A stretch of 64,000 nt of DNA, from NCBI GenBank assembly GCA_963713825.1, contig CAVQNG010000025.1, positions 480,001 through 544,000 on the forward strand, written 5' to 3'. Positions 31,389 to 44,499 of the stretch are shown in pieces (position 1 is the stretch's first letter; every line of letters begins with the position of its first letter). The notes under the pieces are model-generated. The model ran no database searches and had not been told where the DNA came from. It saw nothing but the letters and a program-made list of their open reading frames with translations. Position numbers and translations under genes: made by a program. The stretch comes from an uncultured Acidobacteriota bacterium. GTDB lineage: Bacteria > Acidobacteriota > Thermoanaerobaculia > Multivoradales > JAHEKO01.

Positions 31389-32126
31389 ATGATTACGGGC
31401 TACAACACCGACGTCCCCCACTCCGATGTGGTCTTTCATGTACAGACCGAGGACAAGGGTATTGCCAGCGCTTTCATCGAAAGCCTGGTCTACGTCGGTG
31501 GTCAGGTGCTGGCCAAGAAGAGGACGAGCTACAAAAGCGCCCTGGATGCAGGCGAGGGCAAGAAGCGCATCGTCGAGCTGATGGACCAACAGCACCGATT
31601 GACGATCGCCGAGATTCAAAGCGGCAAGTACGACAGCCAGGTTCCGGGAGGCAAGGCCGCCGAGTCATCGATGAGCGCTGAGGAGTTCCTGAAAGACCCG
31701 AAGGTGGCTCCCGAGGTGGAGGTGGAGCACCTGCCGACGCCGGAACCGACTCGTCAAGTCGCGACTTCGGAAGCGGAGAGCCCGACCCTCGACCAGATCA
31801 TCATGGACTACCTCAACTCGGAGTCCGAGCAGGAGGCCCTGATTCTGATGATGGACGCGGATCACGAATTCGCTCTCGGTGAGACCGTGGCTTTGCGTTT
31901 CCGCACCAAAGGCAGCCTGAGCGGACAGGCCGTGCCGGGGACTCGGATCTCGGTCAAGATGATCTCCACCGTCGTCGGTCCGGCCACCCTGGCGCAGGGT
32001 GAGACCAATGCCGGGGGCGAGCTCAAATTGTCGGTAACGATCCCTGCCCTGCAGCGCGGCAGCAGTGCCCTGATCGTGACTGCCAGCAGTGCGATTGGCA
32101 CAGCCGAGATCAAGCAACTACTGTAG
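31389..32126 (+). CDS. Conserved hypothetical protein
   Basis: N-terminal MITGYNTDV..FHVQTEDKG segment and a beta-rich C-terminus; its last ~100 nt lie inside the att repeat. Confidence 0.8.
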   Translation: MITGYNTDVPHSDVVFHVQTEDKGIASAFIESLVYVGGQVLAKKRTSYKSALDAGEGKKRIVELMDQQHRLTIAEIQSGKYDSQVPGGKAAESSMSAEEFLKDPKVAPEVEVEHLPTPEPTRQVATSEAESPTLDQIIMDYLNSESEQEALILMMDADHEFALGETVALRFRTKGSLSGQAVPGTRISVKMISTVVGPATLAQGETNAGGELKLSVTIPALQRGSSALIVTASSAIGTAEIKQLL

Positions 32127-32254
32127 GTAGAATAGCTTCGAATCTTCCCTCTCGCACTTGACGCGAGAGCGTGTATAATCCCCCGTTCGAGGGCCGCTAG
32201 CTCAACTGGCAGAGCAGCAGACTCTTAATCTGCGGGTTCGGGGTTCGAGTCCCT
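32027..32254 (+). repeat. attL: 228-bp direct repeat (copy 1)
   Basis: Matches 44260-44487 except two substitutions (CAGCGC/CAACGC and TTCGAATC/TTCGGATC). Confidence 0.95.
32191..32254 (+). pseudogene. 3'-truncated tRNA-Lys(CTT) fragment at attL
   Basis: First 64 nt of the tRNA, then diverges (TTCTCC...); lacks the 3' acceptor strand and CCA. Confidence 0.92.
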
Positions 32255-32337
32255 TTCTCCTTACTCAACACCTGCCGCTTTCTTCCTCCTCATGGGCCAC
32301 CCATGGGCCAGTTGGTATTCAAAAAACCACCGAGAAT

Positions 32338-32601
32338 CTAGCCTAGAGCCTTCGGCGGCAGCGTCCGTGCTTTCTTAGTTTCTTCGATCAGTTCCTGCAC
32401 TTTCTCCCGCACCATCTCGCTGACACTGCGCTCGGTGTAGGCGGAGATGAGCCGCAGCGCCTTCCTTTCCTCAGGAGCGAGGTAGATGACTACCCGCATG
32501 AGGCCGCCAGATGTGACGGTGGTCTCGCCACCTTTCGGGCCCTTTGGGACCTTGCCCTTGGCGGCCTTCTTGATACCTTTACCGCTGCTCGTTGGAGTCA
32601 T
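32338..32601 (-). CDS. Ribbon-helix-helix (CopG/ParG-like) DNA-binding protein with a Lys-rich N-terminal tail
   Basis: MRVVIYLAPEERKALRLISAYTERSVSEMVREKV has the beta-alpha-alpha RHH pattern. Confidence 0.75.
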   Translation of the reverse strand: MTPTSSGKGIKKAAKGKVPKGPKGGETTVTSGGLMRVVIYLAPEERKALRLISAYTERSVSEMVREKVQELIEETKKARTLPPKALG

Positions 32602-33044
32602 CGCTGTTTCCCTGCCAGATGTTCCTCTTGGCGTTGGGCGTTGATGTGCCGCCCCTGCGGCTGCGTCATGCGGATGATAACATATCGGCAACATGGGTGC
32701 ATAGGCATATGTGATTATGGGCCCGTAGAGACACGAACCCTGATCCCCAGCCACTCTTACCCTCAAAGATGATCAAAGTGGCCTCAGGGCGATTCTGAGG
32801 CGATTGTGGGCTTGGTGAGGGCCTGCTCAGAGCGCGCACTCAGCAAGGGCGATTTAGTGGACTGAGGTCAACCTCGTTGAACCACCTGGGTTCAGTCCCG
32901 ATGTCTCGCCTTCTGAATGAAGTGCATCAGTGGCTTGAAGGAGATTTCGGAGAACCATCGGCCAGACGCTCCAAGGTAGGATGGGTTTAGGAATGGCGAT
33001 GTGCCTAGTCGAAGGGCACCAGTTCGTTTTGAAGGAGGTGGGAA

Positions 33045-33362
33045 TTGCAGCTAGGCGCAGATGACACCGCCTTCGTGGTGATTACTGCTACGGTAGTTGT
33101 GGCGTTGTTGGTTTGTTGGTCTTCGCAGCGTTTCTTTAGGTACTTGAAACTTCATCATCGAGAGTTGTGGGATGAATTGGGAAGACCACATGCCTTTCTG
33201 AATCAATCGACCGATGCCACCAACTTTCTGCTACGAGGTCAGTATAGGCACCTCAAAGACCCTCGACTGAATCGTCATGGAAGCATTTGGAAGGTGACGA
33301 TGATGGGCTTTGTGGCAGCACTCTGGCTAGCACTCATATCCCTGGTGGTGAGTCAGTTGTGA
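33045..33362 (+). CDS. Small 2-TM protein (UspB-like architecture), paralogue A
   Basis: GGAGG RBS; TM, LKLHHRELWDELGRP...FLLRGQYRHLKDP, TM. Confidence 0.75.
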   Translation: MQLGADDTAFVVITATVVVALLVCWSSQRFFRYLKLHHRELWDELGRPHAFLNQSTDATNFLLRGQYRHLKDPRLNRHGSIWKVTMMGFVAALWLALISLVVSQL

Positions 33363-33416
33363 CTCGAATCCAACTGGTGTGCCAGAGGTCATGAATGAAA
33401 TGAGAACCTGACAGCG

Positions 33417-33740
33417 ATGTGGAACGCACTTCTCACCACCACTTGGTCAGCGCTCGTGGTGCTTGTCGTGACTCTCCTCATTGTCTGGTATTTGCTCCTG
33501 CGACGCCTGCGGCACCACCATGAAGAACTCTGGCACTCCTTCGGAGAGCCGAGATTTTTCAGAACAACGATTCAGAAGCAGAATGATGTTCGGAAGTTCC
33601 TACGTTCGGGGGAGTACAGGAAACTCGGTGATCCTCAAATGGACCTGCTTGTACTTCTGGCAAAGATCCTAAACCCTCTTGCATCGTTGCTGTTTGTGGT
33701 CTGGGTCGTTGGAGAGTTGTTGATGTGCTGGGTCCCGTGA
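33417..33740 (+). CDS. Small 2-TM protein, paralogue B
   Basis: TM, LRHHHEELWHSFGEP...FLRSGEYRKLGDP, TM; clearly homologous to 33045-33362. Confidence 0.78.
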   Translation: MWNALLTTTWSALVVLVVTLLIVWYLLLRRLRHHHEELWHSFGEPRFFRTTIQKQNDVRKFLRSGEYRKLGDPQMDLLVLLAKILNPLASLLFVVWVVGELLMCWVP

Positions 33741-34387
33741 TTCAGTCCGAAAGAGAGGATTGCTTGAGAGTTGGAGCCCTCTTCGCGCTTGGTGATGCTC
33801 GCCTGCTTCTGGTGGCGCTGACGATGTTCTTCGGTTGTGGCCTGATGAGTGCCGCAAAAGAGGACACTCCAACCTACAGAATCAGCAGTCTTCCAGAAGA
33901 TGCGGTCCTTGAGTATGGGTTTCACGGAGGATACGGCTTAACGTCGCCTCGGTATCACCTGTACGGTGATGGGCTCCTAGTTCGGGAGGTGATCGACAAA
34001 ATGACTAACCGAGCAGTAACCACCAAAGAGCTTCAACTCTCGCTGCAGGATGTCGATGCCCTAATGCAAATGGTGGTTGAGTCTGGAGTGCCGGAATTGA
34101 CACAGCACAAGATTCGCGCTGTGGTTGGGCCGGGGTCGTTGGTCCAAGACGCATGGATGGTGGTCTTGCAGCTACGGTTCGAGAGCTATCAAAGAGAAGG
34201 GAAAGCGGAGATAGCCCCATTTGAGCCGAAGATTACAATGGAAACACCGTCACTGGTGGCCGAGGCGTTTCCTGATTTCCGAGAAGCACATGCTCTGGTA
34301 GCGCTCAACGAAGCGCTAGAAGAGTACTTCGAACAGTCTGGAACTGAGGCGGTGATGGAAGCCTCCCAGGGCCCACCCGGCAACTGA
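33725..34387 (+). CDS. Hypothetical putative lipoprotein, paralogue A (start uncertain)
   Basis: Hydrophobic stretch ending FFGC; AVLE...GG...YHLYGDGLL. Confidence 0.72.
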   Translation: MLGPVIQSEREDCLRVGALFALGDARLLLVALTMFFGCGLMSAAKEDTPTYRISSLPEDAVLEYGFHGGYGLTSPRYHLYGDGLLVREVIDKMTNRAVTTKELQLSLQDVDALMQMVVESGVPELTQHKIRAVVGPGSLVQDAWMVVLQLRFESYQREGKAEIAPFEPKITMETPSLVAEAFPDFREAHALVALNEALEEYFEQSGTEAVMEASQGPPGN

Positions 34388-34401
34388 CAGATGAAGGTGC
34401 T

Positions 34402-35028
34402 ATGAGGGGCTCGATGGTCATTCAGAAGTACGTCACCTGCCTAGGTCTAGTAGCCCTGCTTTTTGCGGGTTGTTCGCGAAGCGGGGCAGAAGAGTTCACG
34501 CCGAACGAGATGTCTACGGGTGTACAGGACGTTGACGCGATGAACTTGGAAAGGACATTCACATTCTCCGCAGATCCCGCAGTTGCGGTCCTTCAACTTC
34601 ACTGGAGCGGCGGCTTGCGAATGGATACCGTTGAGTACTCTCTTCTAGGTGATGGGCGTCTTCGCAAGGTGCGCAGGTCTAGGAGCGCTCTTCACGAGAG
34701 CGAAGAAGTGGAGTTGTCGTATGGCGAAGCCGAGGCTCTCCTACGGCTGGCCGTCGACGGCGGGCTGATGGAATGGGACTGGGACCGTCTTCGGGCGCAA
34801 TTTGTCGCTGCAGCGGGGCATGAACCCGCAGGTACGGACTCGAGGATCCTCCAATTTCGAATTGTCCTTGAGACCTATTCGGGGATTATGGAATCGCACG
34901 AGGGTTCAATAGCAAAGACGTTCTCGACCTCATCTCCCGCTCTCCTCAGACGAGAAGCACCTGAGATCAGAGAAATCGCAGCGCTTGATGAGTTGAGTCA
35001 GCAATTGGCGCGCTATTTCGGGCGGTAA
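34402..35028 (+). CDS. Hypothetical lipoprotein, paralogue B
   Basis: Lipobox LFAGC; AVLQ...GG...YSLLGDGRL; homologous to the preceding ORF. Confidence 0.78.
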   Translation: MRGSMVIQKYVTCLGLVALLFAGCSRSGAEEFTPNEMSTGVQDVDAMNLERTFTFSADPAVAVLQLHWSGGLRMDTVEYSLLGDGRLRKVRRSRSALHESEEVELSYGEAEALLRLAVDGGLMEWDWDRLRAQFVAAAGHEPAGTDSRILQFRIVLETYSGIMESHEGSIAKTFSTSSPALLRREAPEIREIAALDELSQQLARYFGR

Positions 35029-35055
35029 ACGCGGCGGGGATAGCTCCCGACCTTG

Positions 35056-35143
35056 GCCGGTGGAGTTCCGGCGCGTGTGGCGCGCATACATTTCTCCTTA
35101 CCCCTGTTAGGGCTGGTGAAGGTGGGTGTAGGGTAGGGGGCTC
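35056..35143 (+). repeat. 88-bp island repeat, copy R1
   Basis: Aligns without gaps to 39151-39238 and 40970-41057. Confidence 0.88.
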
Positions 35144-35268
35144 AGAAGAGCGTTCCCTCAGTTGGGCTGCGCTGCAGCGTTTGGACGAATCCACTCACGA
35201 ACCTGCTTCTCACAGTCTCCACGTTTCTGCAGTACAAATGTGCCGACCAATCGCGGATCGAAAGCCAA

Positions 35269-35673
35269 TCAAGGTCCCGGTCTGTTCTGAAGGACTCGCC
35301 TTCTTCGGGGCCAAGGCAAGGGGACGTTTAGAAGACTCCAAGTCTTAACAGTCTTCCAGGTGGCACCGTCGGGTTTTTGCATTCTTGCCTTCGTCGCTGT
35401 CTTGCCTCTGTAGAACTCGACGATTCGGTAATCCCCTGACAGCAGCCCGGCGACCTCTTGGCGGCACAGTCGCCTAACGCTCTCTTCACCACATGGGAAC
35501 CATGAACCGCGAAAGGCGCCGGCTTCGAGAAACACCTCGTCAATTTGCAAGTTCAGGTTGACATCAAATAGCAGACCTCTCTGGCGGGGGATGTCCAGGT
35601 TCAGATCGAGACCACTTTCGGCAGGCTGCCTCAGCAGTCGGGCCGCTTCCTTCCGTGCAGTGTGGTCGATCAT
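35269..35673 (-). CDS. Hypothetical protein, possibly chimeric or degenerate
   Basis: 134-aa ORF containing LDIPRQRGLLFDVNLNLQ and SWFPC segments. Confidence 0.55.
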   Translation of the reverse strand: MIDHTARKEAARLLRQPAESGLDLNLDIPRQRGLLFDVNLNLQIDEVFLEAGAFRGSWFPCGEESVRRLCRQEVAGLLSGDYRIVEFYRGKTATKARMQKPDGATWKTVKTWSLLNVPLPWPRRRRVLQNRPGP

Positions 35674-35702
35674 TGGTGCGATTCTCGGCTCATCGCTTCA
35701 GT

Positions 35703-36635
35703 TCACTCGCCTGGCCGTGAGGCTCGTAACGCCCGAATCGTAGCCTCATACTGGTTGTCACCGAGAGCGACGACTGTCAAGAATCCCACCAGCTTCTGCC
35801 CATCGGGCGATTCCTGCTGGAATATCTGCATGTCGCTGACAGTCCCGCTCGACTCCGCGTCAGGAAGCCATCCCTGTTCCACCATCTGACCTCCGAAGTG
35901 CCTCGCCACTGCGACTCGAGACATGTCCACCTTGAACAGGTTGCTCCTGCTGCGGGAGTCTCCAAGACCCTGGCTGCCTGAGTTCCCCCCACCCCCGCCG
36001 CCAATCCAAACGGAGTCCTCGGGGAGATGTAGGGTGGGAAGGAAGCGTTCGAACTGGTCATAGTGGCGGTCCCCCACTAGTCGCCATCGGTCCGAACTGC
36101 CAGGCCAGCAGTCATCATCATCGAGAATGTCTAGTACTGCGAGAGTCTGATCCTGAAGCGGATGAACAACCACCGACAGCAATCTGTGGTCAGGGCCGCA
36201 AAGGGACACTTCTTCCGAGTCTGAATAGACGAACCCACCAGGCTGGGCAGGTCCCTTTTCAGCGGCTCGCCATTCCCCGCTCAACAGCGCCGCGCGGATG
36301 AGATCTCTCGCCTGGTCGGGTTTGCTGGGAACGCGTACCGCAACTCGCGCCCACGTCTCTGAGCTGGCACTTGCGACTACAGTGGCTCCGCTGGGAAGGG
36401 GGACCAGCTCTTGCAGCCCCGCCGGCATGCCTCCAGGCGTGACCGCCGGTACGCCACGAAACTTGGACGACAGCATTGCTGAAACCTCTTCTGCGGACAC
36501 GCAGTTCGACACTGTCTGCGAGAAGACCGGCATCACGAAGCAGCCCAGCATGAGACCGAGAAGGAGACCAACTCGTCCTTCGCTTCGGAAAAGAGCCACG
36601 GCACACCTCCGATCTTGGAGCGGTTGAAACCTCAT
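35703..36635 (-). CDS. Hypothetical secreted protein
   Basis: Signal-like LLLGLMLGCFVMPVFS; Gly-rich linker; start placed at MRFQ after GAGGGGG. Confidence 0.7.
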   Translation of the reverse strand: MRFQPLQDRRCAVALFRSEGRVGLLLGLMLGCFVMPVFSQTVSNCVSAEEVSAMLSSKFRGVPAVTPGGMPAGLQELVPLPSGATVVASASSETWARVAVRVPSKPDQARDLIRAALLSGEWRAAEKGPAQPGGFVYSDSEEVSLCGPDHRLLSVVVHPLQDQTLAVLDILDDDDCWPGSSDRWRLVGDRHYDQFERFLPTLHLPEDSVWIGGGGGGNSGSQGLGDSRSRSNLFKVDMSRVAVARHFGGQMVEQGWLPDAESSGTVSDMQIFQQESPDGQKLVGFLTVVALGDNQYEATIRALRASRPGE

Positions 36636-36720
36636 TCTACTGATCCCCCTCTGGAACATGTCCGACTTGTTCCCGTAGGTGACCTCAGAGACTGATATCA
36701 ACCCCGTTGAAGACCCGTCT

Positions 36721-36909
36721 TCAGTCCCGATCCCTTGAGTTTTCGCCCAAGGCGGCGAACCTGCCAACGAAGCCGAATATACCGACAAACGTCACCAGTC
36801 CCATCCAAAACCCCTTGTAGATAGCTACGTAGATTCCGGCGGCAAGACCCGCGATGAACGCGAACACGATCAACGCGAGAGGCAGAGTTCCCTCATCCCA
36901 ACGAGACAT
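36721..36909 (-). CDS. Small 2-TM protein (62 aa)
   Basis: Two hydrophobic helices; AAGG RBS. Confidence 0.55.
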   Translation of the reverse strand: MSRWDEGTLPLALIVFAFIAGLAAGIYVAIYKGFWMGLVTFVGIFGFVGRFAALGENSRDRD

Positions 36910-37032
36910 GACGTACCTTAAAGGACTGTAGCACTAGAACCACTGCGACCCGACTTCGACGGGAGTCCCTCTACCTTCCCGGGAGGGTGGTGCATCGTTT
37001 ATGTAGTGCCTGCTAGGGTGCCTCCAGCAGAG

Positions 37033-37605
37033 ATGAAGCTAACAGGTAGATCGACTCTGTTGGTAGCTGTGGCCCAGGTCCTCCTGGCGGCCAGCTTTTC
37101 CTCCCCTCAGGGGAGATACCTCTCGGACGACGAGAGTGGCGTCAGGCAGATCAGAGAGACAGGAGATCAACGCATTTGCAGAGTTGTCAGCACGGTTGAG
37201 CACCCACACCATTCGGAGGAGGAACGCAGAGAGTTCGAGTCGTTCACCAAGCTGTTCCATCTCAGTCTTCTAGAGGCGGAAGGAATACAGGTCGGGAATG
37301 GAGACCCCTGTGAAGGCGGTACCCTCGAATTGGCGATGAGGACCGCCAAAGACGAAGAGCGCGAGTACTTCTTCACAACCGTGGTTGTTCAGTACTTCGC
37401 CCACGAACCGACCAGAGAGAACCTCGGTGAAGCTGAGCCGGCGTGGGTGAAAGCCGGAGCCATAGACCCGATTCGTTACAAATCGAAGGATGCAGACAGA
37501 GATGACTGGGTCTACTTCCTGACCGGCAAGACGCTCGAGCTACACCTGAAGCTCTTCCACGAATTCGTGTCAGATTGGAAGGAGGCTCACGGGACCCCCT
37601 CGTGA
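37033..37605 (+). CDS. Hypothetical secreted protein
   Basis: Signal peptide MKLTGRSTLLVAVAQVLLAAS. Confidence 0.7.
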   Translation: MKLTGRSTLLVAVAQVLLAASFSSPQGRYLSDDESGVRQIRETGDQRICRVVSTVEHPHHSEEERREFESFTKLFHLSLLEAEGIQVGNGDPCEGGTLELAMRTAKDEEREYFFTTVVVQYFAHEPTRENLGEAEPAWVKAGAIDPIRYKSKDADRDDWVYFLTGKTLELHLKLFHEFVSDWKEAHGTPS

Positions 37606-37613
37606 GAGCTGGT

Positions 37614-37934
37614 ATGGACTCGCTGGGGTTGGCGGGTGATCCTGCCGCAAAGACCGGTATCGCAGCCTTGTCCGAGGAATACTTTGGATTGCCGCCAGAG
37701 GCCCTGGTGGTCGTAATCGTGGCCTCTGCAATTGGGTTCGGAGCGTCACTTCTGTTTACCCGCTCCTACCTCCGACGAGTAGGGAAACCTTGGACCTCGG
37801 CGTTGCATCCTCGGTTTATGCTTGATGCGGATTTCAACAAGAGAGAGCTGCTGATCTTGGGCGCCACGTTTGCCCTAGTATTTCTCTGGCTGTTGCTCTC
37901 CTCTTTCGTGAGGGGTTGGTTGAAGTACAGATAG
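37614..37934 (+). CDS. Small 2-TM protein
   Basis: TM, RRVGKPW...DFNKRE, TM. Confidence 0.65.
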   Translation: MDSLGLAGDPAAKTGIAALSEEYFGLPPEALVVVIVASAIGFGASLLFTRSYLRRVGKPWTSALHPRFMLDADFNKRELLILGATFALVFLWLLLSSFVRGWLKYR

Positions 37935-38140
37935 CTCCTGCACCATCCTTGTCTTTTTCGTTCTGGGGTGTGTTCCATGAGCGCTCCCTCCAGTCCAAAT
38001 ACCTTGGTAGTTAGGCCCGCCACTCAGACCGGGCATGACGGTTGAGTGGGGGTGCGGCATCGTGGTCCACTGGAGGGGTTCCCCAGGGAGGTCAGGGCGT
38101 CGGTTACACTTCTCTTGGTCAAATTGTGCGGAGGGGGCTA

Positions 38141-38674
38141 ATGCTCAAGCTGATCGGTTATCCCGCGATCGTAGTCTCGAGCCTGAGTCTGGTGGCTAGT
38201 CTGGCGATTATCCTAGCTGCGCCCACCGGATGGATAGACTCCGAAGATGTGGTCCTCCTAGCCATGATCTTGAGCATCGTTGTTCCTGGAGGAGCCGCGA
38301 TTCTGATCGTCAATACGGAGTTCGAGAATCTGTCTCAGCGCCAAGTGATGAAGCTGAGCTGGGAGTTGTGTCCTCGCTGGATGCGGCTTCTGGGGAGGAT
38401 CCTGATTGCCATGGGTTTTCTAGCCTTCCTTGGAGAGGTTGCGGTAGGAGCCATTGGAACCTCCTCTGAAACCGAAGGTTCCACAGCTCTCTCCACGGGC
38501 GGTTTTGGACTCGTGATTCATGCGTGGGCAATCGTCTTGATCTATGGAGCAATGCAGTTGCAGGAGAATCTAGCCCGGTCTCGGTGCAAGTTCGGTCACG
38601 AGGTCCCGTTGGGTGCGAAGTTCTGTCCCGAGTGTGGTGAAAGAGCTAACCCAGAAGGCGCTCGACTCGAGTGA
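38141..38674 (+). CDS. 4-TM protein with C-terminal zinc ribbon
   Basis: GGAGG RBS; CKFGHEVPLGAKFCPECG. Confidence 0.75.
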   Translation: MLKLIGYPAIVVSSLSLVASLAIILAAPTGWIDSEDVVLLAMILSIVVPGGAAILIVNTEFENLSQRQVMKLSWELCPRWMRLLGRILIAMGFLAFLGEVAVGAIGTSSETEGSTALSTGGFGLVIHAWAIVLIYGAMQLQENLARSRCKFGHEVPLGAKFCPECGERANPEGARLE

Positions 38675-38749
38675 GTACTCAGGTCGAGTCAAGTCAATCG
38701 CACTACCCGAAGACGTGGCGACTGCTGAGCAGCGTCCCGTTAGGCTGTT

Positions 38750-39214
38750 GTGGAAATGGTCTCAGCTGAAGGTAGTCTCCAGCTTGACGCCACCACCCGG
38801 ATGGCGATTGGCTGCATTGTCGCGGCACTGGCATTCGAGTTGTTTGCGGTGGGCGCGATGGTCTGGCAAGAGTCCCAAGCCGTCGGCCTCCCAGTCTTGT
38901 TAGGCTGCGTTGGGGTACTCGGGATGGGAGTTCTCTTGGCCTCCGTTTGCAGCTTCTTGATCTGGTTTCATCGAGCTTACAGGCGCTTGGAAGTCCTCGA
39001 GGTGGGGAATCGTAGGTACTCCGCCACTTGGGCTGTTCTGGGGTGGTTCATTCCGTTTCTAAACTTGGTTCGTCCGTACCGCGTGGCCATCGAAATCTGG
39101 GAAAGGACGGACTCCTACTGCTGCCTGCAAGCGGGCGGGCCGGCAGCTCCGCCGGAAAGTACCCGGCGTGTGTGGAGCGCATTCATCCGCTCTGAACCCG
39201 GTCGGGGCTGGTGA
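38750..39214 (+). pseudogene. DUF4328-like membrane protein, apparently C-terminally truncated at repeat R2
   Basis: FLIWFHRAY..L, WAVLGWFIPFLNLVRPY..EIW signature; the frame then runs into R2 and stops. Confidence 0.6.
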
Positions 39215-39238
39215 AGGTGGGTGTGGGGTATGGGGCTC
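39151..39238 (+). repeat. 88-bp island repeat, copy R2
   Basis: Aligns without gaps to R1 and R3. Confidence 0.88.
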
Positions 39239-39584
39239 GGACCACCAGGCGCTCTGCTGTGCAACTAGGCAGCTGCTCTAGCGGGAATCCGAGAAGCGGC
39301 GAAAGAGAACGTGAGCCACCTCGGCGGCGGAGGGATTCGCATTCAGGGCCGCGACAAACGCTGGTGAGCCTCTGATACGGTGCCTGCCGGCAACGATCAT
39401 TTCCCGCCACGAGACAAGAAGCACTAGCCTGGCAGATCTTCTCGGGCAAGAGGGATGGTTGTTGGCTCTGTCGGGAGTCGTGGTTGTGGTCTAGCGAACC
39501 AGAAGTGGATCATGACGAGCACCCACCCAGTTGGGTAGTGCGTCGTAGTTGCTGATCTGGTAGTTATCAGTAGGAGCGAACTCG

Positions 39585-40970
39585 GTGAGCGTATCTTCTT
39601 TCTGCCAGCGGGTAACTAGTGGAGCAGTGAGAAATTATGCCCTCATCCTGCTGTCGTTTCTAATAGGGGCGCTGCTTCATGCTCAGGAGTCCATTCGTCT
39701 AGGCGACGAGTTCCAGGTCAACTCCTACACCCCGGGAAACCAATGGCGTTCCGATGTAGCAGTGGACGCCCAGAGCAACTTCGTGGTCGTCTGGCAAAGC
39801 CGAACGTCGCCCGGCACAGACGCGAGCTGCTACAGCATCCAGGCGCAGCGCTACGACTGCGATGGGACACCTGTCGGAGGACAGTTTCAGGTCAACTCCT
39901 ATACGACGAGCTGCCAGGAGATCCCCAGGGTGGCAACCGATCCACAGGGCAACTTCGTGGTTGTCTGGGAGAGCTATGGGTCGTACGGCTCGGACGCGAG
40001 CTACCACAGCATTCAGGCGCAAAAGTATGATGCCAACGGAACTCCTCTTGGGGGCCAGTTCCAGGTCAACTCCTACACCACCGGAAACCAATGGTGGTCC
40101 GATGTTGCAATGGACGCCCAGGGCAACTTCGTGGTGGTCTGGACAAGCTGGGGTTCCTTCGGCACAGACTCAAGCCCCGAGAGCATTCAAGCGCAGTACT
40201 ACGACTCCAGTGGCACGCCCGTGAGAGGAGAGTTTCAGGTCAATAGCTATACAACGTACAGCCAAATCCGACCCGCAGTGGCTGTCGACGCCCAGGGCAA
40301 CTTCGTGGTGGTCTGGGGCAGCTGGGGATCGTACGGCACAGACACAAACTTCTGGAACGTGCAGGGTCAGCGATTCACCGGCAAGGGCTTGGCTTTGGGT
40401 AGAGAGTTCCAGGTCAACAGCCTCAGTGAAGACATCCAAAACTCGCCCAGAGTGGCGGCGGGTGCGAACGGCAGCTTCGTTGTCGTCTGGAGAACAGACG
40501 GCGAGTCCCCCGGCACCGATTCCAGTGTCAGCAGTGTCCAGGGGCGGCGCTTCGACGCCAGTGGAAGAGCATTGGGTAGCCAGTTTCAGATTAACTCCTA
40601 CACCATTAACCGCCAGGAAGAAGCCGCAGTAGCCTTGGACACAGAGGGCAACTATGTGGTCGCCTGGGCGAGCTTGGGTTCGGATGGCACGGACACCAGT
40701 TCCTGGAGTGTCCAAGGTCAACGCTTCACCAGCAATGGCTCACCTCTGGGAGACGAGTTCCAGGTCAACAGCTACACCTCGATTCATCAGCGCCGCCCAG
40801 CTCTGGCTGTTGGACCAAACGGTACATTCGTGGTCGTATGGGAGAGCTATGGTTCGTACGGCACGGATACGAGCCAGGCCAGTATCCAGGCTCAGCTCTA
40901 CGCCACATCGATCTTCGCGGACGGCTTTGAGTCAGGGGATACGTCTGCATGGGACGACACCGTGCCCTAG
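39585..40970 (+). CDS. Secreted protein with seven ~58-aa repeats (probable beta-propeller) and C-terminal IFADGFESGD motif
   Basis: Signal peptide; 7 copies of [EQ]FQVNSYT..Q...VA.D..GNFVVVW; ends IFADGFESGDTSAWDDTVP. Start may be the GTG at 39628. Confidence 0.88.
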   Translation: MSVSSFCQRVTSGAVRNYALILLSFLIGALLHAQESIRLGDEFQVNSYTPGNQWRSDVAVDAQSNFVVVWQSRTSPGTDASCYSIQAQRYDCDGTPVGGQFQVNSYTTSCQEIPRVATDPQGNFVVVWESYGSYGSDASYHSIQAQKYDANGTPLGGQFQVNSYTTGNQWWSDVAMDAQGNFVVVWTSWGSFGTDSSPESIQAQYYDSSGTPVRGEFQVNSYTTYSQIRPAVAVDAQGNFVVVWGSWGSYGTDTNFWNVQGQRFTGKGLALGREFQVNSLSEDIQNSPRVAAGANGSFVVVWRTDGESPGTDSSVSSVQGRRFDASGRALGSQFQINSYTINRQEEAAVALDTEGNYVVAWASLGSDGTDTSSWSVQGQRFTSNGSPLGDEFQVNSYTSIHQRRPALAVGPNGTFVVVWESYGSYGTDTSQASIQAQLYATSIFADGFESGDTSAWDDTVP

Positions 40971-41057
40971 CCGGCGAATACCCGGCGCGTGTGGAGCCCA
41001 CTCATTCACAACTACCCCTGTGGGGGCTGGCCAAGGTGGGTGTGGGGTGGAGGGCAC
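40970..41057 (+). repeat. 88-bp island repeat, copy R3
   Basis: Begins at the last base of the upstream TAG stop codon. Confidence 0.88.
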
Positions 41058-41059
41058 GC

Positions 41060-41690
41060 GTGAATCGCCAGAGGTTGGCCAGCGAGACCCTGCCTTGCTA
41101 GCTATACATTGCGAATATGTCGCAGATCTCTGCAAGGTGCTGTCTCACAGTAACTTACGTGCGTTACCGCTGTCTCAGATACTGCAAAGTACCCTGGTTT
41201 AGCCTACTCCCAGGAGTCCTCCAGAGCGGGCAGGAGGCAGAGAGAGGGAGAGGAAATCCCAATAGGCAAGGCTGGTGGCAGGCGGGGCGAGTGTTGACTG
41301 TTTGTAGTCCCAGCACTCCGAACGGCATCACGAAGCAGCGCACTCCGAGACACGCCTTGGGGGCGTGCTCGGTATTCTGCTGGCTAGCGGGATGCTCCCG
41401 AAGAGCGTTCTCAGTCAGCCGATAACTAGCCCAATTTGAATTGGGCTGAATCGGCTGCTAGCCAGATCCTCTAGTGGAAGGATTCGTAAGAGGTCCTAGA
41501 AAGTATCCTAGGCATATGAGCCCTGACTGCGCCCCAGCTCTGGGGGGTTGAATCCCCCAAGTCTGGGGCGCAGGAGGTGAGTGAGAGGGTAGAGCTGAAG
41601 GGTATAGATTGCTACTCTTCTAACCTCCTTCTAAGCCCTCTATACCTCCCCAGTTCCCCCCTCTTAGCACGAAGTGCCCCACCCCTCCAT
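41060..41690. other. Putative replication origin of the element (non-coding, hairpin-rich, downstream of rep)
   Basis: Hairpins CAGCCGAT..AGCCCAATT-TG-AATTGGGCT..ATCGGCTG and CTGCGCCCCAG..GGGGG-TTGAAT-CCCCC..CTGGGGCGCAG; purine and pyrimidine tracts. Confidence 0.5.
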
Positions 41691-43172
41691 TTACTGATTT
41701 TCTGTTCTTATCCCTAGGCTCTCCAAGTCTCTTCGAACGGTTCTCGGGTGGCTGCCGATCGCCGCTGCCAGCTGTCTCAGCGAGAAGGGCAGGGGGTCAC
41801 CGTGAGTCTCGGCGAGATGTTCAAGTGCCTCGTGTCGCCGCCGCTGCTCCAGCTTCCTTTTGCCCTTCTCAGGCCTATACTCAAAGTCGGGCCGAATGCT
41901 GAGCAGTTCAAGATTGTCGGCTTCCTCAACAGTGACCCCCAGGAGCCTGGCGACGGTCTTGTTCCTAGGCGGGTTCAGGTTTGAGAGTCCGCTTTTCATC
42001 TGAGTTCGCGCTTCATGCGGTGCCATCTCAGGATGGCAATGCTCTGCGATTTTCAGTACCTCTCTCTCGATCGCTTCGTCGGGGTACCCGATACCGCGCA
42101 GTATCGTGGCTGCTAGGTAACACGCATGCCGACGAGTACCCTGAGAGAACCCGCCTCTCGCGTAGCGGATGATCTGAAACTCTACCCACAGGCGTTCATA
42201 CCTGGCCTTTTGCGCCTTGCGCTTGGGTGCGAGCTGGGCGATCTCCTGGTCCGTTTTTTTCGGCCTTGGCCGTGGCGGCTTCTTTCTGACTTCTGGCTCT
42301 TTCTCAAGACCCAGGTACTCCCGTAATTCCTCCAATGTGTAGCTGGCGGGGAATCCGCTGTCCTCGAGGTAGACGAAGTACTCAACAGGCAACCCGACCT
42401 TGGAGTTGATACTCCCGGCAACTCGCTGATGAGTCGTCACCTTGACAGGATCCTCGTCGGGTTCAAGCTCAGGGCGAGTGGCATTCAACCTTGCGACTAG
42501 AGCCAGATTGATTCGTTCCTGAAGTCTCCTATTGCGATACCAAGCCTTTGGCGGCGATGTACCCAGCTGTCCCTGAATCAGCCTCGCTAGTTCGAGCGCA
42601 GGTGGATCACTCTCATCGACAAGAAACCAGTAGGGGCGGACTCCACGCCCAGTGCGCTCGATGGCCGAGATCGGAGGCACCAGTCTTTCGGATTCCAGTC
42701 CCTTTAAATACCCCATGGCTGTCGTGAAATCCAGCTGTTCGCAATCGCAATCTACCCAAACCGCTGTCAGACGGTGATAGCTTTTCTCCGTGGGCCATGG
42801 CCTCGGACCGTAGACAGTGTTGATGGATACGTAGGCGTCAGTCTTCAGCTGATTGATCACGGGCTGCCATGTGATCACGTACTCCAGGCGCTCAAGTGGC
42901 ACCGAGCCTCTGAACCGACCTGCGTACAGAAACCGTGGTTGGTCGTCAGTCTTTCTCCAGAAGTGAACATAGCGACCACCAAAGTCCAGATTCCAGCGGT
43001 TGCTGTGGAAGTACTTGAGGTGCCCAACACTTAGCCCTTCAGCGCCAAAATGCAGCTCCTTCTTCAATAGTTGCCTCCCCCATGTGGGCCAGAAACAGTC
43101 TCTAGACAGCCCTGTAATCGCCCGTATTTGGCCTCTGTCGGACGTTCCCTCTAAACCCGAACATCCGCTCAT
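41691..43172 (-). CDS. Replication initiator: AEP primase-like domain, PriCT-1-like domain and C-terminal HTH (start uncertain)
   Basis: AYVSIN, AVWVDCD (hhhDhD), TGRGVRPYW, QRVAGSINSK; GTRRHACYLAA..G...PEMAPHE (PriCT-like); SLRQLAAAIGSHPRTVRRDL (HTH). Confidence 0.78.
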   Translation of the reverse strand: MSGCSGLEGTSDRGQIRAITGLSRDCFWPTWGRQLLKKELHFGAEGLSVGHLKYFHSNRWNLDFGGRYVHFWRKTDDQPRFLYAGRFRGSVPLERLEYVITWQPVINQLKTDAYVSINTVYGPRPWPTEKSYHRLTAVWVDCDCEQLDFTTAMGYLKGLESERLVPPISAIERTGRGVRPYWFLVDESDPPALELARLIQGQLGTSPPKAWYRNRRLQERINLALVARLNATRPELEPDEDPVKVTTHQRVAGSINSKVGLPVEYFVYLEDSGFPASYTLEELREYLGLEKEPEVRKKPPRPRPKKTDQEIAQLAPKRKAQKARYERLWVEFQIIRYARGGFSQGTRRHACYLAATILRGIGYPDEAIEREVLKIAEHCHPEMAPHEARTQMKSGLSNLNPPRNKTVARLLGVTVEEADNLELLSIRPDFEYRPEKGKRKLEQRRRHEALEHLAETHGDPLPFSLRQLAAAIGSHPRTVRRDLESLGIRTENQ

Positions 43173-44208
43173 TCATGCGGCTCACTACCTTGGTCGTGTG
43201 CTGATCGGACAGGTGACTGTACCTCTTAACTACTGCCAGGGTCTTGTGTCCGAGAACCTCGGCGATCTCGGCGAGGGTGGCACCGCTCATGGCGAGATAT
43301 GAGGCAGCCGTGTGGCGGAGATCGTGAAAGCGGAAGTCGTCGATTCGAGCCTTTCTGAGAGCGCGCTCCCATGCCTTTCTCGGGAAAGTCGCTTTTCCGC
43401 CTGGAGCAGGGAAAACGAGGTCGGTGTCCATCCGTCTGACCTTTCTCATCTCGCGAAGCAGCTCCGCCGCGTAGCCGGTCACGGGAACCGCCCTCCGTTC
43501 ACCGTTCTTGGTGTGATGGATGATAGCCAGGCCACGGCTGCTGTCTATGTCATTCCAACAGAGCCCGAGAAGCTCACTCTGACGGGCACCCGTGGAGAGA
43601 GCCAAGACCACTAGAGGATAGAGTCTCCGCTCACTGCTGCTTCGACAAGATGCGAGTAGTTGGTCTCTCTCGTAGTCGGACAGAAACCGTACTCGCCCGC
43701 GAGGCTCGCGCTCTCTGGACACGGATCTGACAGGGTTGGTCCCTGTCCAGCCCACTTCTCTGATTGCGAAGGTGAAGGCGTGAGAGAGCGCTGCAAGGTA
43801 TCGATTCACCGTGCCAGCTGCCCTTCGTGTTCCCTTCGGAGTCAGACCTCTGGAGAGTACCTTCTTTCGGCTCGCTACCAGCTCGGGTGTTACATGCGCC
43901 AAGCAGTAACCTCCGAGCTGGGCCTTCCACCAGAGCAGCTGAGCCCTTTGAACCCGAATGCTTGCCGGTTTGCCCGGCATGGCTTCGACAAGGTAAAGGT
44001 CTACCAGCTCGCCAAGCGTACGGCGCTGAGCTTGGCTAGTCCTGAGGTACCGCCCTTCCCGAATCCCGGTCTCTGTCTGCTCTGCCCACTGCTTGGCGAG
44101 ACTCTTCTTTTGAAAGGTCGCTGTCTGAGGGGGAAACCCCTTAATACGAACTCGAGCCCGGTAGCTGATGGTCCCTGTTTTCGATATCCTGCGTTGAATG
44201 GTGGCCAC
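43102..44208 (-). CDS. Tyrosine recombinase / site-specific integrase
   Basis: GAGGAGG RBS plus GTG; N-terminal arm-binding-like YRARVR; catalytic R (TGARQSE), K (TKNG), HDLRH, LGH, RY. Confidence 0.95.
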   Translation of the reverse strand: MATIQRRISKTGTISYRARVRIKGFPPQTATFQKKSLAKQWAEQTETGIREGRYLRTSQAQRRTLGELVDLYLVEAMPGKPASIRVQRAQLLWWKAQLGGYCLAHVTPELVASRKKVLSRGLTPKGTRRAAGTVNRYLAALSHAFTFAIREVGWTGTNPVRSVSREREPRGRVRFLSDYERDQLLASCRSSSERRLYPLVVLALSTGARQSELLGLCWNDIDSSRGLAIIHHTKNGERRAVPVTGYAAELLREMRKVRRMDTDLVFPAPGGKATFPRKAWERALRKARIDDFRFHDLRHTAASYLAMSGATLAEIAEVLGHKTLAVVKRYSHLSDQHTTKVVSRMNERMFGFRGNVRQRPNTGDYRAV

Positions 44209-44259
44209 GGAGACCTCCTCTTGGGTCTGTGGTCCACGGGTTGTCCAACGAGGAGGAAG

Positions 44260-44487
44260 ATTGTCGGTAACGATCCCTGCCCTGCAACGCGGCAGCAGTG
44301 CCCTGATCGTGACTGCCAGCAGTGCGATTGGCACAGCCGAGATCAAGCAACTACTGTAGGTAGAATAGCTTCGGATCTTCCCTCTCGCACTTGACGCGAG
44401 AGCGTGTATAATCCCCCGTTCGAGGGCCGCTAGCTCAACTGGCAGAGCAGCAGACTCTTAATCTGCGGGTTCGGGGTTCGAGTCCCT
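44260..44487 (+). repeat. attR: 228-bp direct repeat (copy 2)
   Basis: Copy of 32027-32254: 3' end of the upstream host gene, CTCTCGC/GCGAGAG hairpin, TATAAT and the 5' 64 nt of tRNA-Lys. Confidence 0.95.
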
Positions 44488-44499
44488 GGCGGCTCACCA
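44424..44499 (+). tRNA. tRNA-Lys(CTT)
   Basis: GGGCCGC/GCGGCTC acceptor stem, GCAGA-CTCTTAA-TCTGC anticodon arm, GTTCGAG T-loop, CCA end. Confidence 0.97.

Follow-up and report, generated by a model that had tools for sequence, protein, structure and literature searches.

A tRNA-Lys island of an uncultured Acidobacteriota bacterium is probably a cryptic integrative plasmid-like element with a helicase-less primase-type Rep

Which kind of mobile element occupies the tRNA-Lys(CTT) locus of an uncultured Acidobacteriota bacterium (Thermoanaerobaculia, Multivoradales, JAHEKO01; assembly GCA_963713825.1)? The question is raised by a 64,000-nt stretch of contig CAVQNG010000025.1 (positions 480,001 to 544,000, forward strand), referred to below as the window, on which features are numbered from its first letter. 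The window contains a 12,233-bp island encoding a tyrosine integrase, a putative replication protein (Rep), a small putative ribbon-helix-helix (RHH) protein, and a set of mostly envelope-type cargo proteins. We conclude, with a probability of roughly 0.65, that the island belongs to class (iii) of Kazlauskas et al. (2018; PMC5862659) as a cryptic integrative plasmid-like element, or integrated episome. An initial annotation of the island had proposed instead an undescribed class of element, and the fate of its individual claims is reported below with the corresponding results.

The edges of the island are 228-nt direct repeats with two mismatches, and its length is the spacing of these repeats. 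The left copy (32027-32254, plus strand, attL side) and the right copy (44260-44487, plus strand, attR side) were delimited by repeat alignment; for the left copy, the left-flank alignments of relatives also stop at 32254. The repeat comprises the final 100 nt of the host gene 31389-32126, a 64-nt intergenic region, and positions 1 to 64 of tRNA-Lys(CTT). The island is missing exactly at the repeat edges in all five same-genus genomes, the alignment of the left flank ending at 32254 and that of the right flank beginning at approximately 44260, within 1 to 2 nt (44259-44262). Four of the five congeners carry the locus on one contig, with both flank alignments present and overlapping by the length of the repeat, and these four sites are therefore empty. 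In the fifth (G005), the locus is divided between two contigs. The GC content at third codon positions ranges from 0.54 to 0.73 in the open reading frames (ORFs) of the island and from 0.72 to 0.79 in five flanking genes. The insertion is real and foreign, and the 12,233-bp element initially delineated is borne out by the 228-nt repeats and by its precise absence from the five congeners. Duplication of the 3' end of the host gene also generates a 53-residue ORF (44198-44359), the last 38 residues of which are the end of the 245-residue host protein; this ORF is probably not expressed as a protein.

The intact tRNA-Lys(CTT) gene (44424-44499, plus strand; ARAGORN call, Rfam score of 62.2 bits) has its 5' 64 nt within the right repeat and its last 12 nt in host DNA. 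At the other edge lies a displaced 5' fragment of the same gene (32191-32263, plus strand), a pseudo-tRNA that scores 35.4 bits with the Rfam tRNA model and is not called by ARAGORN. In this fragment, element sequence stands in place of the 3' strand of the acceptor stem, and a T-rich tail comes after the T-arm hairpin. The left repeat copy runs on into unrelated sequence and the right copy into the intact tRNA. The tRNA-Lys(CTT) gene is present in a single copy among the 49 tRNA genes of the assembly, and its restoration upon integration is therefore needed. The repeat also includes a conserved TATAAT box located 11 nt upstream from tRNA-Lys. A TTGACG-17-TATAAT promoter within the repeat was considered and rejected since the spacer is 10 nt and the TATAAT box alone is conserved.

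The full gene (44424-44499) and the co-oriented fragment (32191-32254) bracket the island, as expected for an island integrated in a tRNA gene (tDNA), and the gene lies on the strand opposite to that of int, with the repeat spanning the 5' part of the tRNA and its upstream region. This arrangement differs from that of the loci of related integrases. In all 12 of these, a tRNA gene located just upstream shares the strand of int and has its 3' end toward it; repeats, detectable at three of them, start at tRNA position 30 and are of the anticodon type. Restoration from the 5' side is rare but known. The Islander collection, in the part of its description used here, contains 159 islands with a 5' fragment and 3,760 with a 3' fragment among 3,919 (Hudson et al., 2015; PMC4383910), and an account of pelagiphages, also used in part, includes some from which a tRNA gene receives its 5' end (bioRxiv 10.1101/410191). 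The present island shares with the former a full tDNA, a co-oriented 5' fragment upstream, and an integrase gene between the two (PMC4383910), and with the latter the restoration of the 5' part of the tRNA by the element (bioRxiv 10.1101/410191). In contrast to both, the restoring sequence here is a 228-nt block that also rebuilds the region upstream from the tRNA and 100 nt of a protein-coding gene. As a separate observation, the T-arm hairpin of the truncated tRNA followed by the element-derived CTTTCTCCTT (32234-32263) forms a terminator-like site (32234-32252), which could halt transcripts of the repeat region, keeping them from entering the RHH gene in antisense. Such sites are not more frequent in the region than expected by chance (12 found versus 9.7 expected).

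The integrase gene (43102-44208, minus strand) encodes 368 residues from a GTG codon at 44208, 52 nt from the 228-nt repeat. The assignment of its product as an integrase is confirmed by matches to PF00589 (5.8e-30) and phrog_1 (1.9e-70), and the catalytic motifs ARxxE, HxxR, LGH, and RY are seen in the translation. With the integron-integrase models, the scores were 44 bits (cut-off of 265) and 25 bits (cut-off of 435), and the Xer cut-offs were likewise far from being reached. The integrase family is very large, with 7,273 clusters at E ≤ 1e-60 among 8,000 candidates scored, and its named members originate from Gammaproteobacteria, Magnetococcales, and Nitrosospira. Another integrase gene of the same genome, located at the start of a 21.9-kb contig (C35:202-1548), encodes 448 residues with 30% identity to the island enzyme. 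It precedes ORFs whose N-termini are signal-like, one of which shares its C-terminal 19 residues (95% identity) with the repeat protein of the island described below.

Rep is encoded by 41691-43067 (minus strand; 458 residues from a TTG codon), the called start corresponding to residue 36 of an ORF that extends to 43172. The protein itself has no match in Pfam, PHROGs, or NCBIfam. It belongs nonetheless to a family with 599 relatives at E ≤ 0.001, and 303 at E ≤ 1e-10, among 1.84 billion representative proteins, most of them 420 to 520 residues in length. Fifty homologues provided the conservation counts and the input for structure prediction. In the resulting AlphaFold (AF2) model, which has a pLDDT (predicted local distance difference test) of 91.7, residues 9 to 253 adopt the fold seen in archaeo-eukaryotic primases (the AEP superfamily). 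The best structural match is the PrimPol of cyanophage S-2L (6zp9; Z score of 15.9, root-mean-square deviation of 2.7 over 174 aligned residues; Foldseek E value of 1.9e-5), followed by RSF1010 RepB' (3h25, Z score of 13.3, and 3h20) and by the PolDom, PriS, and LigD polymerase domains (Z scores of 8.5 to 10.9). Residues 404 to 458 form a winged helix-turn-helix (wHTH), as indicated by structural Z scores of 6 to 7 and by matches to ArgR- and RpoN-type profiles. The intervening region is assigned at the level of the family. The PriCT_1 model matches six of the 50 homologues, with a best score of 28 bits (cut-off of 21.1) for residues 298 to 353 of homologue P0066, and the match falls on the central conserved block of Rep, RGGF..G.RN...CxPPL. 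No PriCT-containing structure was retrieved for residues 255 to 400 by a search with the whole-protein model, in which the domain was not folded alone. The initial description of the protein as an AEP-PriCT-HTH Rep is therefore sustained, by the fold and motifs for the AEP domain and by the family for PriCT-1 and the wHTH.

The catalytic motifs of the AEP domain are conserved with one variation. In motif I, D106 and D108 are present in the 50 homologues, and D204 of motif III in 49 of these. In motif IV, R215 is invariant (50/50), position 216 is occupied by V, I, or L in 48 proteins, and the Asn at position 221 of the island protein is shared by 30 homologues and replaced by His in 14. In the part of the PrimPol-PV1 survey relied upon here, motif IV consists of an Arg and a hydrophobic residue downstream from motif III, followed six residues later by Asn or His (PMC5862659), a geometry that R215 and N221 reproduce. 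In motif II, G140 and G142 are conserved, the usual His being replaced by Arg in the island protein and by Trp in 42, Arg in 4, and His in 4 of the homologues. According to section 8 of the survey, the His of motif II is family-specific (PMC5862659), and its loss is therefore compatible with membership of the AEP superfamily.

Some relatives of Rep have plasmid-like contexts. Among 72,556 plasmids, only seven weak matches were found, all from Acinetobacter. An hhalign comparison of the Rep family with an Acinetobacter plasmid protein annotated as 'DNA-primase RepB domain-containing protein' gave a probability of 98.9% over 297 columns, with the same layout and an HTH end. The closest Rep (P0151, 87% identity) is encoded by a 12,919-nt contig. 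A cluster of 15 near-identical homologues (P0007) is found on contigs of 0.7 to 6.2 kb from several sources, eleven of which are 3.5 to 6.2 kb, sizes that hint at small cryptic plasmids. The only relative with a visible context is encoded by a 2,086-nt metagenome contig, L044, in which an ORF for an RHH/ParB-like protein and one for a RepA_C protein (PF04796, 8.2e-32) precede the homologue of Rep (best segment with 34% identity), an arrangement (98-2055) that, from its gene content, is a plasmid-type replication cluster. The RHH proteins of L044 and of the island have no detectable relation (E value of 0.06 over 7 residues). A second contig, L045, was rejected as encoding a Rep relative, its product being a methyltransferase that shares WVDCDCE by chance.

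The third backbone gene (32338-32601, minus strand) encodes a putative RHH protein (Arc/CopG-like) of about 87 residues if translation starts, as we infer, at Met56 of the 142-residue ORF 32338-32766. The assignment is consistent with weak matches to Antitox_RHH (E value of 0.0017) and to a PHROG Arc-like repressor (E value of 5.8e-5), although the Antitox_RHH score of 18.9 bits is below the cut-off of 27.2. On the basis of these matches, the protein is a probable regulator. A lone homologue is encoded elsewhere in the genome (C1:110647-110829; 44% identity over 61 residues), with no integrase homologue nearby as determined by tblastn.

Scans covered the 15 ORFs of the island with Pfam and 10 of the 15 with PHROGs and NCBIfam. 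Families of relaxases, conjugation or type IV secretion system (T4SS) proteins, capsid proteins, terminases, helicases, and ParA had no match among the 15 ORFs. None of the six frames of 32255-44259 contained a canonical Walker A motif ([GA]xxxxGK[ST]), and the island therefore encodes no packaging ATPase, terminase, or Zot-like protein. The ORF scans and the motif search together uphold the absences that the initial annotation had listed, and also its view that the layouts of integrative and conjugative or mobilizable elements, phage-inducible chromosomal islands (PICIs), and integrons do not fit. For the first of these, the Pfam families of relaxases, coupling proteins, and T4SS components are absent from the 15 ORFs. 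For phage satellites, there is neither a helicase nor a P-loop protein, and no PHROG structural or packaging family matches the seven cargo ORFs scanned, out of 12 in total. For integrons, the integrase scores are far too low, and the 89-nt repeats of the cargo region described below fold no better than shuffled sequences.

The layout has in fact been described. In the portion of the survey of Kazlauskas et al. (2018; PMC5862659) considered here, which spans 12 bacterial phyla, chromosomal genes for PrimPol-PV1 primases lie in integrated mobile genetic elements, mostly in tRNA genes and with repeats made by the integrase. One class of these elements, class (iii) or 'cryptic integrated MGE', is devoid of conjugation and phage genes. 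The same portion reports AEP families with a uniform AEP-PriCT-1-HTH organization and with a helicase in neither the protein nor the element, and offers origin unwinding by the PriCT-1 and the HTH domain of ColE2 Rep as a model for helicase-less initiation (PMC5862659). The cryptic elements with primases of the PrimHYQ or RepE/RepS type share with the present island the tRNA site, the tyrosine integrase, the direct repeats, the AEP-PriCT-1-HTH organization, the lack of a helicase, and motif IV and, for some of them, the lack of conjugation and phage genes (PMC5862659). They differ at motif II, which contains His, Tyr, or Gln in PrimHYQ and His in RepE/RepS as opposed to the predominant Trp observed here, the families having been compared by their description rather than by clustering. 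Since this backbone layout is already in PMC5862659, the proposal of an undescribed class is unsupported. Among the initiators listed by a recent plasmid survey there are also AEP-superfamily proteins with a PriCT domain (bioRxiv 10.1101/2024.09.03.610885).

Other replicons share part of this organization. ColE2-P9 Rep and the IncP-6 initiators are likewise single proteins combining AEP, PriCT, and DNA-binding domains, with origin binding, NTPase-free unwinding, and priming, all of which are only predicted for the island Rep; the comparison draws in part on the survey already cited. In contrast to the island, ColE2 exists as a free plasmid and has no integrase, and its family model, PF03090 (Replicase), is absent from the 10 families listed for the 50 Rep homologues at E ≤ 0.01. 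The origin of ColE2 is located, we presume, just downstream from rep. RSF1010 RepB' provides the best structural matches after S-2L PrimPol, and Acinetobacter proteins with a RepB domain (e.g. that of pALWED2.2, NZ_CP032117.2) align with the Rep family at the hhalign probability given above, with an HTH end; identity is only 24 to 25%. The PF16793 model does not match the island Rep, and RepB' works with a separate helicase, RepA, and a separate initiator, RepC. The integrative relatives of plasmid pRN1 carry in addition a tyrosine integrase acting at a tRNA gene, and ORF904 of pRN1 carries its own helicase domain. The pRN1 family of the Sulfolobales shares with the island a minimal replicon composed of an RHH-type repressor gene, a PrimPol-type rep gene, and flanking non-coding DNA, according to the part of the source used here (PMC4234260); it differs in being archaeal, and its sequence relation to the island Rep is undetectable beyond the superfamily.

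Taken as a cryptic integrative element, the island would function as follows. The tyrosine integrase would have inserted the element into the single tRNA-Lys(CTT) gene by a crossover in the anticodon arm or the T-arm, within the portion of the 228-nt identity block that belongs to the tRNA. The attP site would carry the 5' side, i.e. tRNA positions 1 to 64, the upstream region with the TATAAT box, and 100 nt from the end of the host gene upstream. If the crossover did occur in the tRNA part, the rebuilt tRNA next to int and the right repeat would be mostly element-borne, leaving the truncated 5' fragment at the far end. In the excised circle, RHH, attP, int, and rep would follow each other in one direction on one strand. 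Rep would act as a helicase-less initiator-primase, its wHTH domain, together with PriCT-1, binding and opening the origin and its AEP domain laying the primer, with host enzymes completing replication as shown for ColE2 Rep. The origin would probably lie in the non-coding stretch of approximately 630 nt located downstream from rep (41059-41690), a candidate that contains smaller palindromes and a near-perfect one of 47 nt (41527-41573), which the terminator search did not flag as intrinsic terminator. The RHH protein would be a repressor or a copy-number regulator.

Metagenomes provided a population view of the island. Sampled 31-mers of the island are present in sediment metagenomes (salt-marsh, marine, estuarine, and freshwater) amounting to 20 runs and 11 studies, and contigs of four runs from four studies were aligned to the window. 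The island pieces listed show 0 to 4 differences (most of them 0), whereas the flank pieces listed differ by 0.9 to 6.3%, many flank positions having another letter in every contig. The depth of the island is below that of the flanks in three of the four runs. The combination of a near-identical island, diverged flanks, and lower depth suggests recent spread or a presence/absence polymorphism, and the island has probably been mobile recently.

Several observations weigh against a functional integrative plasmid. Neither an origin nor iterons were identified in the island, and no excisionase was recognized among its ORFs in the Pfam, PHROG, and NCBIfam scans. The joints listed for the metagenome contigs include neither an attP circle nor an empty-attB junction of the same population, although contigs stop at the 228-nt repeat and are thus uninformative in this respect. 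The contrast between island and flanks was derived from assembled contigs, which drop minor variants. Functions for partition, mobilization, and packaging were not recognized, although an oriT may be present, leaving no evident route of spread. The Arg residue of motif II makes the catalytic competence of Rep a prediction only, and the RepA_C gene next to the homologue in L044 implies that the AEP protein may be an accessory primase in that cluster.

A further point on the same side is the lack of a second element with this integrase and Rep pair in any of the searches. Rep is present in a single copy in its own genome. In 60 relatives, no full-length homologue was found (one 56-residue HTH match), although integrase homologues with 45 to 62% identity are present, without Rep, in 13 of the same genomes. 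In 400 sampled genomes of the phylum, full-length homologues were again lacking, the matches in 63 other genomes being confined to single domains. At the 12 loci of the closest integrase homologues, the approximately 17 kb covered on the side of the element contained no homologue of Rep. Searches with the single protein or with an alignment of five sequences retrieved nothing from genome contigs or from three scans of IMG/VR viral contigs, and one true match, L044, from metagenome contigs. The closest integrase clusters (86%, 76%, and 78% identity) are on contigs whose sizes are unlike that of the contig with the 87%-identical Rep, leaving co-location neither shown nor excluded. The co-located homologues by which a class would be recognized were thus sought without success in the 60 relatives, the 400 genomes, and the 12 loci, which leans against a class. 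So far, and as judged by these sequence comparisons, the integrase-Rep pair appears as a one-off mosaic of two modules that are independently widespread.

The same data bear on the possibility that the island is a fixed genomic island that arrived once and is now immobile, with intact but unused integrase and Rep and a domesticated cargo. The unseen excision junction, the unrecognized excisionase, and a cargo gene belonging to a multi-copy family of the host favor this explanation, as do the repeat copies differing at only 2 of 228 positions, a similarity that is silent on present activity. We nonetheless consider it unlikely, since both proteins are full-length and have kept their catalytic residues, and since the island is absent from the five congeners and, in the four metagenomes, combines 0 to 4 differences with flanks diverged by 1 to 6% and with a lower depth in three of these.

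The cargo extends over about 8.5 kb, is mostly ORFan, and consists of 12 ORFs in four blocks, 11 of which encode at least one hydrophobic transmembrane-like or signal-like segment. The predominance of envelope-type proteins is therefore as initially annotated, with 12 ORFs instead of about 11. Block A (33045-35028, plus strand) contains two paralogous genes for proteins with two transmembrane segments (33045-33362 and 33417-33740) and two for probable lipoproteins or secreted proteins (33725-34387 and 34402-35028). Both of these pairs, noted at the outset, proved real (E values of 3e-5 and 8e-14), and the block has no family match in Pfam, PHROGs, NCBIfam, or PADLOC. A homologue of the lipoprotein pair is encoded elsewhere in the genome (C1:2730-3335; 28% identity over about 175 to 200 residues), with no integrase homologue nearby as determined by tblastn. 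Block B (35269-36909, minus strand) encodes a 62-residue membrane protein (36721-36909), a secreted ORFan (35703-36599; 298 residues as called, of 361) with a single homologue (55% identity) among 5.8 billion clusters, and a 134-residue soluble ORFan (35269-35673). Block C (37006-39214, plus strand) encodes a secreted ORFan of 199 residues, a 119-residue protein with two transmembrane segments, a 210-residue protein with multiple transmembrane segments and a C-terminal zinc ribbon, and a 154-residue DUF4328 membrane protein. Family matches of the cargo are confined to this zinc ribbon and to DUF4328 (profile positions 16 to 92 of 166); a weak match to Spike_JR2 (E value of 0.0027, 20 residues) was taken as chance.

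The largest cargo gene (39585-40970, plus strand) encodes a 461-residue exported protein composed of approximately seven 58-residue (174-nt) repeats. It has no good family model (DUF7055 and PDIAV lipoprotein models match weakly) and belongs to a multi-copy family of the host, with at least six paralogues of 44 to 54% identity in the genome. These include C15:11062-12411, C13:10247-11593, C3:340661-343406, C3:499833-501197, and C1:344256-345092, weaker matches being located on C3, C5, C21, and C22. By this criterion, the protein looks host-derived. A role of the element as a collector of surface, immunity, or exclusion modules, as initially suggested, is supported by nothing other than the hydrophobic segments: the 10 cargo ORFs scanned with PADLOC, out of 12, gave no defence match, and the largest gene is that of a host family.

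The cargo region also contains a private repeat in three co-oriented copies with 74 to 76% identity (35056-35144, 39151-39239, and 40970-41058, plus strand), each at the 3' end of a block of plus-strand genes. The three copies had been recognized previously, with a length of 88 bp that is corrected here to 89 nt. The repeat matched its own genome inside the island only (E values of 1.9e-13 and 4.2e-12) and was absent from 100 relatives, the sole other match being of 27 nt (E value of 3e-4); its folding is not significant in comparison to shuffled sequences (z scores of -0.2, -1.0, and +1.0). The 3' end of the DUF4328 ORF (38750-39214) enters copy 2, and this gene may be cut off where the copy sits. 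In one metagenome run (X15), a single contig with a depth of 12.6 joins position 35084, inside copy 1, to position 41332, skipping 6,247 nt of cargo. The joint has a side of 39 nt, its far end is located outside any repeat copy, and it may hide unknown letters. It may correspond to a variant element with another cargo or none, or to an assembly artefact.

More elaborate readings build on these features. In one of them, the island would be an active, self-replicating, non-conjugative integrative plasmid on an undescribed Trp/Arg branch of the AEP-PriCT-wHTH proteins, spreading from strain to strain among sediment Acidobacteriota by a route such as vesicles, transformation, or a helper, exchanging blocks of ORFan envelope proteins at the 89-nt repeats, and rebuilding with its attP the upstream region and 5' half of a single-copy, essential tRNA; the conjunction of all these elements is improbable. 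Even less credible is a new class of minimal integrative replicon that exchanges envelope cassettes, with the 89-nt repeats as boundaries or recombination sites. The three co-oriented repeats unique to the island and placed at the 3' ends of the plus-strand blocks, the hydrophobic segments of 11 of the 12 cargo ORFs, and the X15 contig would fit such a class. However, no second element of this type was found, the repeats have no significant fold, the X15 joint misses the repeat copies and relies on one contig with a 39-nt side, and the backbone is already described.

Small islands integrated at tRNA genes that combine an integrase gene, a primase-type replication gene, and cargo are typical of PICIs, P4-like satellites, and tycheposons, and many small membrane proteins are reminiscent of membrane-containing phages. 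The former elements also carry a primase-helicase or helicase gene and genes for phage interaction or packaging, none of which was found in the island. The least probable explanation is a satellite dependent on a helper, or a small virus-like element containing a membrane, whose ORFan envelope proteins would have a structural role or redirect a helper, while the integrase and Rep would serve an induced lytic-type cycle: the size of the island, its gene content, and the functions of a mostly ORFan cargo are open to this reading, but seven of the 12 cargo ORFs were scanned without a PHROG match, except for a sub-significant one to a repeat, relatives of Rep are absent from 50,697 phage records and from the three IMG/VR scans, and the lack of a canonical Walker A motif leaves no packaging ATPase, terminase, or Zot-like protein. 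Inovirus, corticovirus-like, and two-major-capsid-protein virus readings were set aside for lack of a P-loop ATPase and of PHROG structural matches.

Identification of the island as a cryptic integrative plasmid-like element leaves the present picture of mobile elements unchanged since its layout is already in print. Its unusual features are minor: a Trp/Arg motif II family without a database model, restoration of the tRNA from the 5' side, an ORFan envelope cargo, and a private 89-nt repeat. Restoration of both the 5' part of the tRNA and its upstream region makes it a clear example of a rare integration geometry. The Rep family, with about 600 representatives, offers a cheap test case for variation in motif II, in which Trp occupies the position where AEPs usually carry a nucleotide-binding His. 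The mobile elements of the Acidobacteriota are little known. The island is a compact one with clear boundaries, an intact integrase, and a primase-type initiator that lacks a helicase, and it may serve as a basis for developing a replicon or an integration tool in this phylum, for which genetic tools are lacking.

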